Positions 40,266-48,732 of a DNA stretch of 64,000 bases are shown in pieces (the first letter of the stretch is position 1; each line of letters begins with the position of its first letter). A program made the translations under genes and the position numbers. The stretch lies in assembly GCA_963974595.1 (NCBI GenBank), contig CAXBDA010000001.1, positions 39,657 to 103,656 of the forward strand, read 5' to 3'. The stretch is from an uncultured Oleiphilus sp. Lineage in GTDB: Bacteria > Pseudomonadota > Gammaproteobacteria > Pseudomonadales > Oleiphilaceae. The notes below the pieces were generated by a model. That model was not told the origin of the DNA. It worked only from the letters and a program-made list of their open reading frames with translations, and did no database searches.

Positions 40266-43200
40266 TCAGAATGTAATTGTTTCTTGATAGAAAGATTTAG
40301 GGATGCGGATATTGGTTGTAAATGATCTGAAATCATCATCTTCATTGCCAGCACTCAGTATCACTTCAATACTGCCACCTTCTTTCTCAAGGAAGCCTTT
40401 TACAGCGTCCATACCAACACCTCTTCCCGAGACATCCGTTACTTCGTCTGCTGTTGAAAAACCTGAAGAAAATATCAAGTTAGCAATTTCAGCTGCGCTT
40501 GGCTTAGGATCAGATGCTTGATAAATACCTTTTTCTATCGCCATCTTATAAATCCGGCTAATCGCAATACCGCGACCATCATCTCTTACAGCTAAATTAG
40601 CGCCTTGTTCATCGGGTGTAACATCTAAAGTGATGATACCACTTTCAGGTTTACCTTTTTCAAGACGTTCTTCTATGCCTTCAATACCATGATCCATAGC
40701 GTTTCTAAATACATGCATGAAGATATTATTCAAGGTTGAACTGGCATGGCTCTTAATCAGAATACCTGCATTATCAATTTTAACCTCTGGTTTCCCTTTA
40801 CCTAATTGCTCAGCCAAAGAGTGCGCAGACTGAATTACATCAGAAATCACCTCTTCTAAAGGCTGCGCCTCCATCGTCATAAGCATACTATAGGCCTCAG
40901 AAACAACACCTTTAACATCTTGACTCATATCAGAGCCAGTCAATGATCTAATATTTTCTAACCACGTTGATACACGTGCAGGGTCAAGTGAAATACCACT
41001 TGCTGCTTCACCATCACGGCCTAATTTCTCCCTGAAGACCATAGCGTATTTCGCTAAGATTTCTTCAGCCCCAGAAAGCTCTGCTAACAATGACTCTTGA
41101 TTCCACTGAACATCTTCATTCTTACGTAAATCATCATAAGTACTCTCAACTTCATGAACAATATCGGTAACCTGGCTCAAACCGTAAGTACGCGCATTAC
41201 CTTTTACGGTATGCATAGATCTAAACAAGTTAGCAATAATATCTAAATCTTTCGTTGCATTGGCTTCGATTAGTTGGCGGCATTCTGCCAAGAACTCTTC
41301 AGCTGAACTTAAGAAGTCACTAAATTTAGCAGCATCAACAGCGAGTATTTCACCAATAATGGCCAATTCACGCTTCTGACCTTCAGCTTCGGCTTCAAGC
41401 GCTTTCAACTCGGTAACATCTCTTACTGTTACCATTAACTTATCAACCTCACCAGACTCACTAATAATTGGATCCCAATCCAGCTCTAGAATCTTTTCAC
41501 GATCATCTTCCATTTTGATGACCATCTCTGTCATCAAACAATGAGAGTTAAAGTCATACATCATTTCATCTTCACCAACAATCGCATCAACGCCCGTGAT
41601 ATTTTGATCGACAGAATCAGAACCCGCCGTTGTATTACTAAATAACAAGTCTGCAAAGTTTCGATCGGCAATACGATCTGTTTCGAATATTTTCTCTAGG
41701 TATGAAGCATACTCAGGGTGAATTAGGCCACCGGCAGTAATGGTAAATAAACCTTGGTGCATATTCGCCATCATATTGGCGATATCGTTATTCTTCTGTC
41801 TTAACTCAGCCGTTCTCTCTTCGACTTTCGCTTCAAGGTTTCTGTTTTGCTCTTCAATCACTTCACGCATACGTATGCTTTTGATCGTAGTCACTAGAGA
41901 ACGGGCAACCGAAGAAACAAACTCATAATCACTATCGGCAAAACTGACGTTCTTAACGTCTCCCGATAAGTTAATCACGCCCACTAGAATATCTTTATCG
42001 ACAAGAGGCACACATAATAGAGCCCTTTCCGAACCGGCATCATTTGATACAAAGTTTTTATCTTTAGAAGTATTTTGTACAAAGATAATTTTCTTCGTTT
42101 CAGCCGCTTTACCTAATATGCCCTGGCCCATTTCAAATTTGGCAGCAGAAGATCCAGCGTCAATTGCTTTCGGTGGAAAGTGTGCCTTGACTTCCAACTG
42201 TGATTTATCATTGGTTAAATAAACTGAGCCTTGAGCGACACCTATTTTGTCATGCATACTTTGTAAAACTTCTTCTAACGCAGTATTTTGGCTTTGCGCA
42301 CCAGCAAGTGAACGACCTATAGAGTTTAATTTTGCCAAATCGATCATTTTCTTACGTATTGCCAATCTCATAGAATTAAAGTTTTGAGCGGCTAACAAGA
42401 TAAGTACAATCAACATGACAATTGATAGTTTGATACCGAAATCAAGGCTATCAGACACTTTGCCTTGTAATTGGTTAAACTGCTCATCGGCTGCTTTCAA
42501 TAGCTTGTCTAAAGAATCAATTGCTTTGGTAACAGATGCATCTGCTTCATCTAATTTGGCCTTAGCAACCTCTATTTTCTCTAATTGCTTCAACTTATGA
42601 TCAGCAATTGAGGGTGACTTCATGACATGTTCACTGAGATCTGCATATGCTGTATTAGCGATTGGTACCAAACCTTGTTCATCAAATTCAGAAAATACCA
42701 TAGCGCCCTTATCAAACCAGGACTTAGAGTCGTTAATCGAGAATGTAAAATTACCCATACCACCACTGACTAGGCCCATATCCTGAGTAATTTTAATTTC
42801 ATCAATGGTTTTAAATAAGTTATTGATTAAAGTAATTGATTGATTAGCAAAGCCGATAACCAGTTCCATATCATCCTGGTGCTCTTCAGGCGCCATGTAA
42901 TACTGTATTTCATCTATCGATGCACCCACGCCATCAATAAGGTTAAACAGGATATCCACCTCGCCTAACATTCTGTTTCTAGCCGCCAACACTTCGGTTT
43001 TGGCTGTAAACATGTCGATCACGGCTTCACGATAGTCATCGTAATTTTCCTTTACTTCTTTTACGAGAACAGACTTCTCTGCATCTTTCTGAGCAAGTAA
43101 AGCAAGGCTTTGATAACGCTCTTCGAATCGTGAAACACCCGAATTAAAAGACGTTTTATAAGCATCAATCTGATCTTGGTTTCCGGCATTGAATGCAAGT

Positions 43201-43403
43201 GAACTCAGTTTCGCCAGTTTTAGCAGCTGGATCTGTACATCATTACTTTCTTTCACTACCGGCACAGCCGTTTCATTCACTAGAGAAGAAGAACCATTTA
43301 TATCATTAAGATTCCACAGGGATGAAAGCCCTGACGTTAATAGAAGCAGGATAATAATGGCAAAACCAAGACCAACTTTTTGATTAAACGATAATTGAAA
43401 CAT
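40266..43403 (-). CDS. membrane sensor kinase: MCP-like periplasmic helical domain, GAF, PAS, Hpt and CheA-type (P4) catalytic domain
   Basis: 1045 aa. TM1 is about aa 10-30. A ~290-aa helical periplasmic region follows, then TM2 at about aa 324-340. A GAF-like region spans ~375-510 and a PAS-like region ~540-665. The Hpt motif is FRSMHTVKGNARTYG (His731). The CheA-like ATP-binding core reads HVFRNAMDHGIE ... VRDDGRGI ... GFSTADEVTDVSGRGVGMDAVK. No P2 or P5/CheW-like domain and no receiver. Confidence 0.8.
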   Translation of the reverse strand: MFQLSFNQKVGLGFAIIILLLLTSGLSSLWNLNDINGSSSLVNETAVPVVKESNDVQIQLLKLAKLSSLAFNAGNQDQIDAYKTSFNSGVSRFEERYQSLALLAQKDAEKSVLVKEVKENYDDYREAVIDMFTAKTEVLAARNRMLGEVDILFNLIDGVGASIDEIQYYMAPEEHQDDMELVIGFANQSITLINNLFKTIDEIKITQDMGLVSGGMGNFTFSINDSKSWFDKGAMVFSEFDEQGLVPIANTAYADLSEHVMKSPSIADHKLKQLEKIEVAKAKLDEADASVTKAIDSLDKLLKAADEQFNQLQGKVSDSLDFGIKLSIVMLIVLILLAAQNFNSMRLAIRKKMIDLAKLNSIGRSLAGAQSQNTALEEVLQSMHDKIGVAQGSVYLTNDKSQLEVKAHFPPKAIDAGSSAAKFEMGQGILGKAAETKKIIFVQNTSKDKNFVSNDAGSERALLCVPLVDKDILVGVINLSGDVKNVSFADSDYEFVSSVARSLVTTIKSIRMREVIEEQNRNLEAKVEERTAELRQKNNDIANMMANMHQGLFTITAGGLIHPEYASYLEKIFETDRIADRNFADLLFSNTTAGSDSVDQNITGVDAIVGEDEMMYDFNSHCLMTEMVIKMEDDREKILELDWDPIISESGEVDKLMVTVRDVTELKALEAEAEGQKRELAIIGEILAVDAAKFSDFLSSAEEFLAECRQLIEANATKDLDIIANLFRSMHTVKGNARTYGLSQVTDIVHEVESTYDDLRKNEDVQWNQESLLAELSGAEEILAKYAMVFREKLGRDGEAASGISLDPARVSTWLENIRSLTGSDMSQDVKGVVSEAYSMLMTMEAQPLEEVISDVIQSAHSLAEQLGKGKPEVKIDNAGILIKSHASSTLNNIFMHVFRNAMDHGIEGIEERLEKGKPESGIITLDVTPDEQGANLAVRDDGRGIAISRIYKMAIEKGIYQASDPKPSAAEIANLIFSSGFSTADEVTDVSGRGVGMDAVKGFLEKEGGSIEVILSAGNEDDDFRSFTTNIRIPKSFYQETITF

Positions 43404-43570
43404 AGTTATATTCTTTTTTATTTAAATTCCAGTGGATTACGTATTACATTTTACTTTAGCGCAGTTTTTTTGAATGTCATGATTTCTTTTAATTTTTTCA
43501 GCAACTTTTCAATATACTGCTAATATAATTTTTAAGCCTTTCATTTAAAGTGGATTGAGAAATACCAATC

Positions 43571-44335
43571 ATGACCAATAAACTCATTCTTTTTTCTGTT
43601 GCCGCATTTGCTATAGGTGCCATTTTGGTTTTTCAATTAAGCCGAAAACACTTTTCGATAAAAATGCAGCTATTAACAGAACAAAACACATCTTTGGAGG
43701 CTGAGCTATCTAAGACTCAGCAAGAACTCAAGACTGAAAAATATAATTTAGACGAAGCTAACACCTCTCTAGAAGCAGCTAATCATGAGAATCATTCTCT
43801 CAACTCGGAAATAGATGCGCTAAGAGACCAATTAAGACACGAAAAAGAATCGATTCAAAATGAAATGCAAGCCGAACTCGACTCTCTTCGTAATAGCAAT
43901 CAGGCAGAAAAAGTCGAGCTAAACGACAAGTTATCGCAAGTAAAAGATAACCTTAATGACCTCGCAGCCTTGTTAGTGACCTTCGAGCGCTGGCATGAAA
44001 GCTTGACACAACTCATGCTTCATAACGCAGAAATGCACAAGCAAAATCAGGAGTTTTTCAATATCGTTAAACAGATTGTCATTCTTGCACTTAACGCTGC
44101 GATAGAAGCCGCTCGTGCCGGTGAACATGGTAGAGGCTTTGCTGTCGTTGCTGACGAGGTTCGAAATTTAGCCATGAGAAGCCAGGAACTTTCTGAGAGT
44201 TATAAGGAAAATCTTAATAAAAACGACTTCTTGACAACGGCAACATTCCAAGACATTCAGGCTGGCGGCAAAATGATTTTGACCGATGTATTCTCTACCT
44301 CTGAAATCGTTAAAAGCATGCTTGAGAAACTATAA
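43571..44335 (+). CDS. miniature MCP-like protein (TM anchor, coiled coil, MCP hairpin-tip segment)
   Basis: 254 aa with an N-terminal TM segment ([17 protein letters not shown]) and a coiled coil. The highly conserved MCP tip [30 protein letters not shown] (aa ~171-203) has only ~50 aa after it. Confidence 0.75.
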
Positions 44336-44384
44336 GGAAACATCACATGCAAAACTTTTCTTTCAAGTATTTAATAGGTTAGCC

Positions 44385-44951
44385 ATGTTAGTTAATGATG
44401 AATTCAAAAATGAAATCAAGAAAGCATTTCATAGCAGTTTTGAAGAAGCCTTTGTAGCTGGCTCAGATACATCACGCTGGCAATTTAAAGAGAAATCAAC
44501 ACTAGAAAATCTAGATACCAAAGAGTTCTATGTCTTAACGATGTCTTCACAGCTTTTCAGAATCTTTATATTTCTACATTTTTCAAAAAATGATGACACG
44601 GAAAAGTTTGTGAGCAGCGTATTGAATTTAACATCTGCCAAGCTGGATGAAGATAAGTTTTATGACTATTTAGGCGAAGTCGGTAACGCCTTTTTAGGGT
44701 CAATTAAGCGCGATTTAGGTAAACACATACCAAGCCTTGGCATGTCTACACCAAATAGACTAAGTATTGACTGCCTAAAGTATATGAAAAACCTTAATTC
44801 AAATTTTGAATCACACGCCATTTCAACGTTTGATGACAAAGTACTATTTTACTCTAGTGTCTATTTAGTTGCAGATGAAGAACTAAATATACATATAGAT
44901 CGTCATTCTCTCGAAAATGAAGTTGACTCTGGTGAACTTGAGCTATTCTAA
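44385..44951 (+). CDS. CheX-like protein (putative CheY-P phosphatase) with C-terminal DSGELELF tail
   Basis: It contains DYLGEVGNAFLGSIKRDLGKHIPSLGMSTP, which fits the CheC/CheX/FliY signature D-x3-E-x2-N-x21/22-P. About 188 aa from MLVNDEF. The ORF is open from 44286 (221 aa), which would overlap the upstream gene. Confidence 0.6.
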   Translation: MLVNDEFKNEIKKAFHSSFEEAFVAGSDTSRWQFKEKSTLENLDTKEFYVLTMSSQLFRIFIFLHFSKNDDTEKFVSSVLNLTSAKLDEDKFYDYLGEVGNAFLGSIKRDLGKHIPSLGMSTPNRLSIDCLKYMKNLNSNFESHAISTFDDKVLFYSSVYLVADEELNIHIDRHSLENEVDSGELELF

Positions 44952-44994
44952 ACTGATAAATACAAGTTTATAAGAATTTAAAACAGGAGCAAAA

Positions 44995-46002
44995 ATGTCT
45001 GATACAACACATATAGTTAGCAAAATTCTGGTGCATGAATGCAATGATGATGCACTTCTTGCATTAAAAGATGTCTGCACCGAACATAAACTTGTCGGCT
45101 TAAAAGTTAGTACGGGTAAGCATAATATTGGCTTAAAAGACGCGGCAAATGAAATTAATGATGTTCTTAACTCCAATGTAGACTTGGGTGCAATTTTTCT
45201 ATCGGAAGCACCGGACCCTATTGGTTTTACAGGTAGTGAGTTATGTTTAAAGATTCATCATACGCGTCCTGAACTACCTATTTTTCTAAGAAGAACAGAA
45301 AAACAAGATGGCAGTGATCTACCTGAAGATGTTCAGAAAGCAATTACTGGCTACTACACGCTTGATAACATAGGAATACTTGATGAATTAATCAGAACGT
45401 ATGTCTGTAGCATGTATTACCCTGTTGAACTCGCGCAAGGAATACAAGAGATTTCGTTTGATGCCTTTTCAAATATCATTACCGACACTGCTATCAGCTG
45501 TGATCAGCCCTACTTAGTGAAAGACCAGATTATTTATGGTGAGCTATTTAGCCTTATCCCCCTGGAAAGTGAATGGTGCAGAGGCTATATGATGCTTCAA
45601 ACCACAGAAAGTGAGATTCTTGATTTAATTCGATCGGGTAAAACACATATCACATCCACCAGGCCTGACTCTCGCGATACCAATGCCGTATTGAATGAAA
45701 TTACAAATATGATTTGGGGTGGCATTAAATCTCGCTACTTCCAAAGTGGTGAATCACCTAGCGAAGCGCATAGAACTCAAGTCCCGATCATTGTAAACCA
45801 CTTACAAAAACACATATCGTTTGGTTCAACAGAACCTCAGCTGTGTTTTAAATATAATCTGAGCACACCAGATAATACGTTTTCTTCTATCACGATCTAT
45901 CAGCGGTTAGTGTTTAACTTAAGCTGGTCTCCTGAAAAATTCGCAGAAAGTGACAAGGCAGTAGATGATTTTGTAGATAGCGGTGAACTTGAATTATTCT
46001 AA
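44995..46002 (+). CDS. degenerate receiver-like domain fused to CheX-like domain, C-terminal DSGELELF tail
   Basis: 335 aa. The N-terminal ~125 aa have REC-like strand/helix periodicity (KILVHECNDD ... LGAIFLSE ... LPIFLRRT). The phospho-acceptor Asp and conserved Lys are not evident. The C-terminal half has a CheX-like NEITNMIWGGIKSR ... VPIIV segment. It ends in VDDFVDSGELELF. Confidence 0.5.
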   Translation: MSDTTHIVSKILVHECNDDALLALKDVCTEHKLVGLKVSTGKHNIGLKDAANEINDVLNSNVDLGAIFLSEAPDPIGFTGSELCLKIHHTRPELPIFLRRTEKQDGSDLPEDVQKAITGYYTLDNIGILDELIRTYVCSMYYPVELAQGIQEISFDAFSNIITDTAISCDQPYLVKDQIIYGELFSLIPLESEWCRGYMMLQTTESEILDLIRSGKTHITSTRPDSRDTNAVLNEITNMIWGGIKSRYFQSGESPSEAHRTQVPIIVNHLQKHISFGSTEPQLCFKYNLSTPDNTFSSITIYQRLVFNLSWSPEKFAESDKAVDDFVDSGELELF

Positions 46003-46077
46003 AGTGTATCTACGCTTATGCTATAAACTTTATTTTTATAATTAGTCCGTCTTTAGTAAGACAACGAGGTAAGCAAA

Positions 46078-46446
46078 ATGGCACAAATCTTAGTAGTTGA
46101 TGATTCAGCAACTGTAAGAAACGAAGTAAGTTCTTTCATCAAAAGTCACGGCATGACTGTCGAAGTCGCTGTAGATGGTAAAGATGGCTTGGATAAATTA
46201 AAAAAAGACCCAAGCGTTAAGCTAATCATATCAGACGTAAACATGCCAAATATGGATGGTTTAACCATGGTCGAGAAAGTTCGAAACGAACTTGGAAACG
46301 CTACCGTTAATATTATTATGCTAACAACTGAAAGTGACCCGCGCATGAAAGAGCGCGGAAAAGCAGCAGGCGTGAAAGGCTGGATAGTTAAGCCTTTCAA
46401 AGGCGACAATGTGGTTGGCAGTATTAAAAAGTTAATTGGTGCTTAA
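46078..46446 (+). CDS. single-domain CheY-like response regulator
   Basis: 122 aa with all canonical REC residues: DD (VVDDS), phospho-Asp (ISDVNMPNMDG), T (MLTTE) and K (VKPF). Confidence 0.92.
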   Translation: MAQILVVDDSATVRNEVSSFIKSHGMTVEVAVDGKDGLDKLKKDPSVKLIISDVNMPNMDGLTMVEKVRNELGNATVNIIMLTTESDPRMKERGKAAGVKGWIVKPFKGDNVVGSIKKLIGA

Positions 46447-46532: not shown

Positions 46533-47834
46533 CTAAGATCTTTGCTCTGGCTCCTTCATTCTTAGAGCAATAAATGCAGCAATGGCTAATAGCGTTCCAG
46601 CAATTATAAAAGACCAAACATAACTCCCCGTATTCGCGACAATCATCCCCGATAAGCGCGTCATAACGAAGCCACCTAAGCCCCATGAAGTAAATAGCAA
46701 GCCATAGTTCAAACCGAGAGACTTCAAGCCCCACCAACTTTTGCAAAATGCCGGAAATAAAGCCAAATTCGTTCCATAATTAAAACCAATAAATGTAGCT
46801 GACAGTATGATGAAGAAAGCCATCGCACCGTCACTAGAGACCACAAATATTGCCAAAAACATATTCAGTGACTGCAAAGCGAGAAAGATAGCCAACGCCA
46901 CACTCCTGCCCATTGCATCTGAAACAACTCCGGCGATAATTCTTCCTGATGCGTTCCCCACTGCCATAATTGCCACAGCAATAAATGCAGCATCGCCCAT
47001 GCTCTGCTTGGCCATCCCGGCCAAACTTCCAATCACCATCAAACCTGCACCCGCACTAATAAAATACAGCCCCCATAACTTCCAAAAAGACACCATTTTG
47101 ATAATTTCAGATGCCTTCCTGTCAATAGCGGTCTTTGCTGCTAAAGGTTCTAGGTTTGATGTACCCTTTTGCTCGGATATTTTTCGGTCTTCTTTTACAT
47201 CTTCCTGCTTCACATCGACAGGCACATAGCCCTCGGGAGGATTTTTCAGAAACTGAGACAAGATACTTACAGAAACAAAAAAAGCGCCTGCAAAGAACAT
47301 CATAGTGCTTTGTAATCCCCATAAGCCGACTAAATAGGAAGCAAGTGGGGCAATATAAACCGGAGCTAAACCAAAACCGGCAACAACCAAACCAGCTATC
47401 ATGCCTGTCTGCCCACCAGGAAACCACTTAAGTGCGGGCGGTGTTGCCGAGGCATAACCGAAACCTATACCCGCCCCGGTTAACACACCAAACCCTATTA
47501 CCCATGCCATATAGCTAGTACTTTGAGAGATAACGAGTAATCCGCTACCGACCAGAACACCACCGATCATGGCCGTTATTTTTGGTCCGATCATGTCTTG
47601 GCATTTGCCTGCAAGAATCATAGTAAAGGCAAATACCAAACAAGCAACAGCATAAGGGTCACCGACTGAAGCCCGTTCCCAATCGAAGCCTCCAGCCTCC
47701 CCAGCTTCAATAGACTCAACGATCTTAGCCTGAAAAATACTCCATGTATAAAGTACTCCCAGCGCCAAATTGATACCAGTACCTGCAAAGGTCACCTTCC
47801 AGCCTGGGTTCTTTAATACTGCTGACATATCCAA
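46533..47834 (-). CDS. MFS transporter (oxalate/formate antiporter-like family)
   Basis: 433 aa with about 12 TM segments and a central hydrophilic loop. The N-terminal WKVTFAGTGINLALGVLYTWSIF is typical of the OFA subfamily. Confidence 0.8.
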   Translation of the reverse strand: MDMSAVLKNPGWKVTFAGTGINLALGVLYTWSIFQAKIVESIEAGEAGGFDWERASVGDPYAVACLVFAFTMILAGKCQDMIGPKITAMIGGVLVGSGLLVISQSTSYMAWVIGFGVLTGAGIGFGYASATPPALKWFPGGQTGMIAGLVVAGFGLAPVYIAPLASYLVGLWGLQSTMMFFAGAFFVSVSILSQFLKNPPEGYVPVDVKQEDVKEDRKISEQKGTSNLEPLAAKTAIDRKASEIIKMVSFWKLWGLYFISAGAGLMVIGSLAGMAKQSMGDAAFIAVAIMAVGNASGRIIAGVVSDAMGRSVALAIFLALQSLNMFLAIFVVSSDGAMAFFIILSATFIGFNYGTNLALFPAFCKSWWGLKSLGLNYGLLFTSWGLGGFVMTRLSGMIVANTGSYVWSFIIAGTLLAIAAFIALRMKEPEQRS

Positions 47835-48117
47835 TCCTTATCTCAACGACAAATGAAGAAATCCTATTTAAGGGAAATAAATTAATATAGCTGTACCACT
47901 ATAATGCAGACTTAAGTAAGGCAATTGACAAAAATCAAAAGAAATATAAAAAATCAAATAAAAGCGTTAAATAAAGGCCTTGGTGCAAGCTTTCTTTGTC
48001 CATGTAAACCATAAAAGGCCCGTTAAAGGCTGTATTGAAATCGGCATTATTTTTAAGCGTTTTATTAGACGATAGACAGCGCATAACATGAGACCTTTGC
48101 AGCTTAAACCACTCTAG

Positions 48118-48732
48118 CTATTGTTTAATTGCCAGATTCAAAGCCTGCTCAGAAAGCTCATCCAAGCTCATCCCACCTTTTGGCTTGTACCAGGTTTTTG
48201 ACCAACTTAAGGCTCCCGTCAAAAACCGCCTTAATACAAAAACATCGCCCGTCACTAAACCATTTTCTTTTGCTTCGGTAATCGTATCTATCCAAAGAGA
48301 TTCATATTCATCTCTAAGTTTTAATATCATCGCCTGATTATCTGTATTTAAGCTACGCCACTCGTAAACCAGAACCGACATCGCCTCACCTGTCTCACCA
48401 TTAATTGACTCAAGTTCACAGCGAATCAAAGCCTTTAATGCATCAACGCACGTTTCAGCTTTGGCCATTTCTTTTTTCATACGCTGGGTATTGAAAATTA
48501 TGGTGTCGACCATGACAGACTTCAAAATATCTTCTTTGGTTTTAAAGTGATGAAAAAGGCTGCCCGACTGAATTCCAGCGGCATTTGCCAAGTCGCGAAC
48601 GGTTGTTCGTTCATAACCTTTTTGGTTGAACAACTTAGCGGCAATAATCAGTAAACGCCCTTTTGCACTATTTGGATCTGTTGCTTCAATTTCTGAATTT
48701 TCTAATTTTTCAACATTACTTGCAGATGCCAA
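48118..48732 (-). CDS. atuR: TetR-family repressor, AtuR-like (divergent from atuA)
   Basis: 204 aa with the TetR HTH AAKLFNQKGYERTTVRDLANAAGIQSGSLFHHFKTKEDIL. Its position and orientation match atuR in the Pseudomonas atu cluster. Confidence 0.75.
   Translation of the reverse strand: MASASNVEKLENSEIEATDPNSAKGRLLIIAAKLFNQKGYERTTVRDLANAAGIQSGSLFHHFKTKEDILKSVMVDTIIFNTQRMKKEMAKAETCVDALKALIRCELESINGETGEAMSVLVYEWRSLNTDNQAMILKLRDEYESLWIDTITEAKENGLVTGDVFVLRRFLTGALSWSKTWYKPKGGMSLDELSEQALNLAIKQ

Follow-up and report, generated by a model that had tools for sequence, protein, structure and literature searches.

What would make two neighboring genes, whose products otherwise have little sequence in common, end in the same eight amino acids? 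The question is raised by a 64,000-nucleotide stretch of DNA from an uncultured Oleiphilus sp. (GenBank assembly GCA_963974595.1, contig CAXBDA010000001.1, positions 39,657 to 103,656), here called the window, in which two adjacent genes encode CheX-like proteins that both terminate in D-S-G-E-L-E-L-F. We refer to the short CheX-family protein as X188 and to the longer one, a fusion of a pseudo-receiver and a CheX domain, as X335. Both are encoded in a module together with a sensor histidine kinase with a CheA-type core, a small methyl-accepting chemotaxis protein (mini-MCP), and a single-domain CheY-like regulator (Table 1). The tail is an almost invariant, disordered hexapeptide on two ancient CheX paralogs of a widespread kinase module. 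The best explanation for it, which we hold with about even confidence, is that it acts as a docking peptide of both CheX phosphatases for the CheY of the module.

The C-termini read ...SLENEVDSGELELF in X188 and ...SDKAVDDFVDSGELELF in X335. As the preliminary description of this locus had stated, the shared octapeptide is encoded by different codons (GACTCTGGTGAACTTGAGCTATTC at 44925-44948 versus GATAGCGGTGAACTTGAATTATTC at 45976-45999), with 6 of the 24 bases differing, all of them synonymously. A degenerate DNA pattern for D-S-G-E-L-E-L-F matched the window at these two sites alone, with 0 matches expected from 100 shuffles of the window. Among the 212 stop-to-stop frames of at least 60 codons, only those of X188 and X335 end with a relaxed version of the motif. 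The two proteins have indeed diverged elsewhere: BLASTP aligned them at 23% identity over 163 residues with the tail included, and identity outside the tail is about 20%.

The module was sought in one genome per species, which yielded 389 matching stretches, with 80 loci kept. Per-locus counts and X188 column statistics refer to 81 species-level loci, and X335 columns to 68 species, while a pooled census of tails covered 192 unique X188-family and 303 unique X335-family sequences. The relaxed motif, G-x-hydrophobic-x-hydrophobic-[FLW] at the C-terminus, ended 190 of the former and 267 of the latter. Counting back from the C-terminus as F(0), E(-2), L(-3), E(-4), and G(-5), motif carriers had G(-5) in 100%, L(-3) in 92-98%, E(-2) in 95-99%, and F(0) in 94-100% of cases. 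At the level of single columns, G183, E186, and F188 of X188 are invariant and L185 nearly so, and in X335, G330 and F335 are invariant, with an entropy of 0.11 bits at L332 and E333. All 117 full-length X335 relatives among the matches listed (47-100% identity) end in [DE]-x-G-[ED]-L-E-[LFMV]-F or in a sequence close to it, and the 3 listed relatives lacking the tail are truncated fragments. Likewise, 119 of the 120 X188 relatives among the matches listed end in G-x-L-E-[LFM]-F, the exception being an anomalous sequence of 219 amino acids. The tail is kept in X188 relatives from Ralstonia and Cupriavidus at 25-30% identity, and among representatives of 50%-identity clusters it persists to about 25% identity, the most distant ones relaxing to G-x-[LIV]-x-[LFI]-[FL]. 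Every synonymous codon for the G, E, L, and F of the tail occurs across species. What selection preserves is therefore the peptide, not the DNA. The preliminary description had proposed that selection, and not a recent duplication, keeps the two endings alike, and had left conservation in orthologs as a check. Both families proved to be ancient, and few features of either are as well conserved as the tail, in gamma- as well as betaproteobacteria.

In the AlphaFold models, the conserved residues lie beyond the folded part of both proteins. The predicted local distance difference test score (pLDDT) of X335 falls below 50 at residues 330-335, a disordered end past a confident CheX fold, and that of X188 is about 60 at residues 171-180 and below 50 at residues 179-188. 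The linker preceding the X188 tail differs in length and sequence among homologs, and its columns 179-182 are among the more variable positions of the protein, with entropies of 2.0-2.8 bits. Such a combination of conservation with disorder in the models is characteristic of short linear motifs borne on flexible linkers.

The longest open reading frame of the X188 gene (44286..44951, 221 amino acids) starts inside the mini-MCP gene and shares its final 50 bases, but since nearly all homologs begin with MLVNDEF, the true start is most likely M34, an ATG at 44385. A database entry of 209 amino acids (P0121) uses still another start. The AlphaFold model of X188 (pLDDT 87) retrieved CheX structures as its top Foldseek matches in the PDB (1SQU, 1XKO, 3H2D, 3HZH, and 6VPW), with E-values of about 1e-6 to 2e-5 and template modeling scores (TM-scores, target-normalized) of 0.6-0.74. 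A profile built from 25 sequences matched 6VPW, the CheX of V. vulnificus (E=0.004), aligning the D-Y-L-G-E-x-G-N helix of X188 with its catalytic helix. Just 16 of the 188 columns are invariant over the 81 species, at a median identity of 33%, and these include E98, N101, the GMSTP block (G119-P123), and, in the tail, G183, E186, and F188. The wider motif D94-x3-E98-x2-N101-x21-P123 consists entirely of invariant or nearly invariant residues.

X335 was modeled with a pLDDT of 88 and a predicted template modeling score of 0.85. Its N-terminal domain gave Foldseek matches to receiver domains with target-normalized TM-scores of up to 0.81, and hhalign aligned it to the CheY of the module with 82% probability, placing S70-E71 over S52-D53. 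A weak Pfam match to OKR_DC_1_N, the receiver-like domain of Orn/Lys/Arg decarboxylases, was also found. The conserved Glu71 (in L-S-E) occupies the phospho-acceptor position, and E15 the position of D8. With Glu at the acceptor site, and with the Thr and Lys positions of receivers unconserved (sequence read by eye), the domain is best described as a pseudo-receiver. Two roles are conceivable for it, that of a receiver locked in a "phosphomimetic" state and that of a decoy for the kinase's Hpt domain. The CheX domain has a pLDDT above 90 over most of its length and retrieved the structures 1SQU, 1XKO, 3H2D, and 3HZH. E235 and N238 are invariant in the 68 species and near-invariant in 116 sequences down to 22% identity. 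The flanks of the catalytic motif are only loosely kept, since Ala231 stands at the D/S position and the Pro lies 25 residues past N238. Paralogs of X335 that are 59-64% identical to that of the window, with the tails GGELEFF and GDLEVF, were seen in isolation in L144, L158, and L164 (and in L146), which suggests that some Oleiphilaceae-like genomes carry an additional tail-bearing copy elsewhere. In one Aquabacterium metagenome-assembled genome (MAG; L052, 4911-5769), X335 is split into frames of 203 and 73 amino acids by a frameshift or an assembly error, and the 3' piece ends in GELELF.

The description of both proteins as CheX-like therefore stands, with a difference in degree: X335 passes the curated 27-bit cut-off of the Pfam CheX family (PF13690), and X188 scores only 16.2 bits, yet its model and its profile match CheX. 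No NCBIfam model matches either protein. The mechanism of the E-x2-N motif, and loss of activity on changing the Asn to Ala, are documented for CheX in PMC12887009 and PMC12799141. Because they combine a CheX fold with an invariant E-x2-N, X188 and X335 look catalytically competent, and we infer that they are CheX-family aspartyl-phosphate phosphatases.

In the window, the module runs from 40266 to 46446, with a divergent kinase gene on the minus strand followed by the genes for mini-MCP, X188, X335, and CheY, all on the plus strand. The order mini-MCP, X188, (X335), CheY is constant across the 80 loci kept, while the kinase gene lies upstream, downstream, or divergently. In 78 of 81 loci, the gene directly 5' of the short CheX gene is that of the mini-MCP, and in 67, a kinase ortholog adjoins the phosphatase genes. 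Among the hosts are Oleiphilaceae and Hahellaceae, which are the apparent relatives of the window, as well as Pleionea, Aliikangiella, Herbaspirillum, Aquabacterium, Paraburkholderia, Pandoraea, Ralstonia, Cupriavidus, Gallionella, and one Acidobacteriota MAG. The X188 and X335 lineages are both found across gamma- and betaproteobacteria; modules of Ralstonia, Cupriavidus, Paraburkholderia, and some Herbaspirillum lack X335 and retain GELELF on X188. CheY has the highest median identity to its counterpart in the window (75%), ahead of the mini-MCP (50%), the kinase (45%), X335 (44%), and X188 (33%). Part of this arrangement has been noted before: according to a passing remark in a 2026 paper (PMC12887009), betaproteobacterial CheX homologs are typically preceded by a gene with a 4HB-MCP domain and an MCP gene, and this synteny is that of the present module.

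The adjacent CheY is the sole true receiver domain in the module, and is presumed to be the substrate of both phosphatases. The gene that had been placed directly downstream of X335 is confirmed by its Pfam match (Table 1), and D8/D9, D53, T83, and K105 are invariant in the alignments, as expected of a receiver. In an alignment of 77 sequences (that of the window and those of the 76 loci possessing CheY), it is 69-98% identical to its orthologs (median 75%), while X188 goes down to 27% and the proteins encoded next to CheY drop to 27-45% across gamma- and betaproteobacteria. The basic α4-β5 segment includes a stretch, MKERGKAAGVKGWIVKPF, that is almost invariant from gamma- to betaproteobacteria. 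W102 stands at the switch position (Y106 in E. coli); a Trp is likewise found there in CheY4 of V. cholerae.

The peptides of CheZ and FliM share the α4-β5-α5 face of CheY (PMC3774744). The motif G-E-L-E-[L/F/M]-F-COOH, which terminates a flexible acidic linker and is kept by purifying selection, may act as a docking or tethering peptide, whose receptor would be the module CheY and whose site would probably be the same basic face used by those two peptides on E. coli CheY. With CheY-P tethered in this way, the E-x2-N catalytic helix would meet it at a higher local concentration, and X188 and X335 would compete for a single site on CheY. Judged from sequence comparisons, CheY is the most likely receptor of the tail, although this assignment could go either way with roughly equal chance.

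What bears on the choice of receptor is comparative, namely gene context and a single clade-level covariation of charge. Distant tail-bearing X335-like genes never have a mini-MCP or X188 gene beside them. In L088, L089, L090, and L092, the X335-like gene stands head-to-head with a gene for a single-domain regulator 48-69% identical to module CheY, with the tails GTVELL, GNLELL, GELELL, and GRVDIF in this set. In L086 and L093 (tail GEIAFL), it is followed by a gene for a REC-HATPase_c_2 protein, and in L084, L095, L096, L097, and L159 (tail GG[LV]VFL), by one for a HAMP-Hpt kinase. A CheY-like gene lies about 1-3 kb from the X335-like gene in L096 and L110. The tails GG[LV]VFL and GKVTFL have lost both glutamates, and the nearby CheY-like protein carries VANEGREAGATAW or IQDEGRDKGATAW versus MKERGKAAGVKGW in module CheY, with K91, R93, and K100 lost. 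These changes are suggestive of charge compensation between tail and CheY at a surface matching the peptide-binding face of E. coli CheY, and only suggestive, because they represent a single evolutionary event with an assumed pairing. Gene context and the covariation favor CheY over the mini-MCP as the partner, with the kinase as the main rival. The distant clade with GG[LV]VFL, GKVTFL, or GEIAFL tails also takes in L085 and L101; the α4-β5 segment of its CheY-like proteins is non-basic, with GATAW for GVKGW.

Several observations weigh against CheY as the receptor. The invariant Lys91 of the module CheY aligns to Ile95 of E. coli CheY (E. coli sequence verified), a residue central to the hydrophobic peptide groove there, and with this replacement the docking mode must differ from that of E. 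coli CheY. GELELF itself resembles neither the CheZ ending (...SLGF) nor the FliM peptides, and the tail alone found nothing in Pfam or among PDB sequences at E-values up to 10. The charge covariation comes from one clade, in which the regulator is 3-6 kb distant and its pairing with the phosphatase is assumed; the gene that is directly adjacent in the GG[LV]VFL clade encodes a kinase, which equally fits a kinase tether. The X335 paralogs of L144, L158, and L164 bear the tail with no module gene within 6-7 kb. Finally, coevolution of tail and CheY residues cannot be measured in canonical modules, because both are near-invariant.

The preliminary description had likened the shared ending to the CheY-docking tail of CheZ, and this holds for one of the two proteins. 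The E. coli CheZ C-terminus, checked in PDB 1KMI chain Z, contains VDDLLDS and ends in ...SLGF. Like the present tails, the CheZ peptide (E. coli residues 200-214) is an acidic, amphipathic, Phe-terminated extreme C-terminus on a CheY-P phosphatase. The stretch V-D-D-F-V-D-S of X335 (residues 323-329) shares 5 of 7 residues with V-D-D-L-L-D-S of CheZ, the other two being similar, and this likeness is family-wide, the consensus ending being V-[DE]-[DE]-[LF]-[VF]-[DE]-[SG]-G-E-L-E-[LF]-F. It overlaps a predicted pre-tail helix along which the pLDDT drops from 79 to 56, with Ser329 just beyond the helix end. However, three more residues separate the stretch from the C-terminus in X335 than in CheZ, because CheZ ends in LGF and has no GELELF, and the VDD-like helix is wholly absent from X188. 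The scaffolds also differ, a four-helix bundle in CheZ and a CheX fold in X188 and X335; the four-helix bundle and catalytic Gln of the CheZ family were not found in either protein, and neither the whole proteins nor their tails gave a Pfam CheZ match. The resemblance to CheZ is thus confined to the VDD region of the X335 family and does not extend to the hexapeptide that both proteins share.

FliY, a part of the flagellar switch that belongs to the CheC/CheX/FliY family, carries a short N-terminal CheY-docking peptide on a flexible linker, and the CheY-binding peptides of FliM and FliY are of the LSQxEIDALL type. Here, the motif is C-terminal, has another sequence, and is borne by soluble CheX-like proteins in a kinase module. 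Given the example of FliY, a docking peptide on a CheX scaffold would be a variation on a known theme and not a new principle, and the idea is less novel than the preliminary description took it to be; for the tail itself, literature searches on CheX tails, the motif, the module, and the host genera found no published description. The characterized CheX proteins (3HZH of B. burgdorferi, 1XKO and 1SQU of T. maritima, 6VPW of V. vulnificus, and that of V. cholerae) have the fold and the E-x2-N helix in common with X188 and X335, but the solved chains, at about 150-159 residues, are roughly 30 residues shorter than X188 and only 12-16% identical. The text searched in PMC12887009 and PMC12799141 describes no C-terminal docking tail on CheX, as judged from that text and not from the chain C-termini.

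Other very short C-terminal motifs were considered as well. The pentapeptide of MCPs (NWETF, xWxxF) tethers CheR and CheB and, like the tail, is a very short conserved extreme C-terminus on a flexible linker with an -E-x-F-COOH ending. In that system, the motif sits on the receptor, whereas here it sits on enzymes and Leu replaces the Trp. Identity with the pentapeptide was rejected, as Leu is found at -3 in 92-98% of tails and the motif is on phosphatases. Both xWxxF and the clamp motif QL[SD]LF share only the hydrophobic-x-hydrophobic/Phe ending with the tail, and neither has contextual support.

Among the alternatives to CheY, a tether that joins the phosphatases to the Hpt or ATPase domain of the kinase, or to a kinase/mini-MCP complex at the membrane, deserves the most attention, even though we regard it as unlikely. 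Phosphatase would thereby be positioned where CheY-P is made, much as E. coli CheZ is localized through CheA-short, and the arrangement would be the NWETF tether of MCPs in reverse. As the kinase has neither P2 nor P5, the module needs another assembly device, and in the GG[LV]VFL clade the X335-like gene lies immediately 5' of the HAMP-Hpt kinase gene, with no mini-MCP or X188 gene. The ending L-E-L-F-COOH also loosely resembles W-E-T-F-COOH, but the defining Trp of the pentapeptide is absent, and CheR and CheB are missing from the annotated neighborhoods and the window. Moreover, in L088 (8.2 kb), L089, and L090, the X335-like gene pairs with a CheY-type regulator alone, with no kinase on these short contigs. 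The mini-MCP is dispensable for retention of the tail, and the kinase is less conserved than CheY, with median identities of 45% versus 75%.

The tail could also act within the phosphatases, either autoinhibitory or dimer-swapped on the CheX domain, or bound to the pseudo-receiver of X335 so as to couple X188 and X335 in a hetero-oligomer. CheX proteins are dimers, according to PMC12887009, and the receiver fold of X335, with Glu at the acceptor position, could take a CheZ-like peptide. Both paralogs carry the same tail, and in most genomes their penultimate residues agree (of 67 loci, 36 have L/L and 16 have F/F), although this concordance is confounded by phylogeny and not absolute, GELEFF occurring with GDLEMF in L108. 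AlphaFold leaves the tails undocked in both proteins, and the modules of Ralstonia, Cupriavidus, Paraburkholderia, and some Herbaspirillum keep the identical X188 tail in the absence of X335, so that we consider this reading distinctly improbable. Still less probable is recognition from outside the module, for example as a degron for a protease or adaptor, a PDZ or TPR ligand, a β-clamp-like motif, or a localization signal. Many motifs recognized at the C-terminus typically have a hydrophobic or aromatic end behind acidic residues, the CheX of B. burgdorferi is, going by the title of a paper (PMC3641820), reportedly a protease substrate, and the orphan paralogs bear the tail away from the module. 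Nevertheless, no protease, PDZ, TPR, or clamp gene was linked to it in about 160 loci, which were scanned for the five module proteins, and the clamp motif's key Gln is absent. In addition, the invariance of G(-5) and E(-2) and the module-specific distribution point to a module-specific receptor, and the charge of the tail shifts together with that of the CheY-like protein in one clade. The adjacency of the paralogs, and nothing more, would speak for a recent duplication, a gene conversion, or a DNA-level element without peptide function. The six synonymous differences in 24 bases, the 23% identity, the use of all synonymous codons, and the wide occurrence of both lineages refute this explanation, which retains practically no probability.

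Returning to CheY as the receptor, a broader proposal can be made tentatively, with somewhat less than even confidence: GELELF may be a previously unrecognized receiver-docking motif that tethers two CheX paralogs to one CheY, and may mark a widespread pathway free of CheW and P5, with a sensor-fused kinase and a mini-MCP, that falls outside CheA-centered classifications. To our knowledge, CheX phosphatases are generally regarded as having no separate docking element, unlike CheZ and FliY. If docking to CheY is correct, the combination of a catalytic helix with a flexible docking peptide would have arisen more than once, on scaffolds that are unrelated or only distantly related. The tail would also offer a handle on an uncharacterized module whose kinase lacks P2, P5, and CheW, the domains around which chemosensory signaling is usually built. 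The docking hypothesis is directly testable with a peptide of 8-17 residues and a protein of 122 residues, and the module occurs in cultivable and presumably tractable genera (Herbaspirillum, Ralstonia, Cupriavidus, and Paraburkholderia).

Table 1. Features of the chemosensory-like module in the window (positions are those of the window).
Feature	Coordinates	Strand	Basis
Sensor histidine kinase, CheA-type core	40266..43403	-	Pfam 4HB_MCP_1, GAF, Hpt, HATPase_c
Mini-MCP, 254 amino acids	43571..44335	+	N-terminal transmembrane helix, coiled coil, MCP hairpin tip
X188, 188 amino acids	44385..44951	+	Homolog starts, AlphaFold, Foldseek, profile search
X188 catalytic E-x2-N (E98-V-G-N101)	44676..44687	+	Translation EVGN
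X188 linker, residues about 171-182, variable, acidic	44895..44930	+	pLDDT, column entropy
X188 hexapeptide G-E-L-E-L-F	44931..44948 (octapeptide from 44925)	+	Conservation, pLDDT <50
X335, 335 amino acids	44995..46002	+	Open reading frame
X335 pseudo-receiver, residues 1-137	44995..45405	+	AlphaFold, Foldseek, hhalign
X335 CheX domain, residues 144-311	45424..45927	+	Pfam CheX, 35.0 bits versus cut-off of 27
X335 catalytic E-x2-N (E235-I-T-N238)	45697..45708	+	Translation EITN
X335 pre-tail amphipathic acidic helix, residues 313-328, PEKFAESDKAVDDFVD	45931..45978	+	AlphaFold
X335 hexapeptide G-E-L-E-L-F	45982..45999 (octapeptide from 45976)	+	Conservation, pLDDT <50
Single-domain CheY-like regulator, 122 amino acids	46078..46446	+	Pfam Response_reg, E=4.9e-25
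CheY α4-β5 segment, residues 86-107, SDPRMKERGKAAGVKGWIVKPF, basic, candidate docking surface	46333..46398	+	77-sequence alignment

The kinase of the window consists of a 4HB_MCP sensor, a transmembrane/HAMP region, a GAF domain, a PAS-like domain, a P1-like Hpt domain (MHTVKG), and a P4-like HATPase_c domain. NCBIfam CheA models cover only the ATPase region (residues about 829-1020), and no P2 and no P5/CheW-like domain was found with the Pfam and NCBIfam models. The betaproteobacterial orthologs share the 4HB_MCP, HAMP, Hpt, and HATPase_c domains. They measure about 760-860 amino acids and do without the GAF and PAS-like pair that the gammaproteobacterial kinases (about 1045 amino acids) carry between HAMP and Hpt (41300-42300 in the window, residues about 370-670). 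The MCPsignal match of the mini-MCP (E=1.1e-19) spans residues 164-248 and profile positions 44-135 of 172. Across the module loci L001-L083 and L098-L172, the arrangement looks as if one MCP had been split between the kinase (4HB and HAMP) and a tip-only mini-MCP.

The module resembles canonical chemosensory systems in its CheA-type Hpt and ATPase core, the hairpin tip of its MCP, its single-domain CheY, and its dedicated phosphatases. It differs in that the kinase has its own 4HB/HAMP sensor, with or without GAF and PAS domains, and in that the MCP is reduced to an anchor, a coiled coil, and the tip. No CheW gene was found in the Pfam-annotated betaproteobacterial neighborhoods of the module, and neither CheR nor CheB in the Pfam-annotated neighborhoods or the open reading frames of the window, the wider loci having been scanned only for the five module proteins. 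The canonical combination of a CheA containing a P5/CheW-like domain with CheW is not present in the module. Kinases of this type are not mentioned in the passages searched in a survey of CheA architectures (PMC10542144), where the terms "transmembrane" and "4HB" were not found and "HAMP" appears solely in the reference list.

Scans for promoters and terminators returned nothing notable. In an Alteromonadaceae MAG (L078, 5880-7317), only the mini-MCP and the short CheX (tail GELELF) are encoded of the module genes. Behind them come a convergent gene for an unrelated hybrid kinase (Reg_prop/Y_Y_Y-HisKA-HATPase-REC-Hpt) and a gene for an OmpR-type regulator, an arrangement that may be a remnant or a rewired form of the module. 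Downstream of CheY in the window, the minus strand at 46533-48732 encodes a multi-pass membrane protein of 433 amino acids and a protein of 204 amino acids that looks like a TetR-type regulator, both of which, as judged from their translations, are seemingly unrelated to the module.

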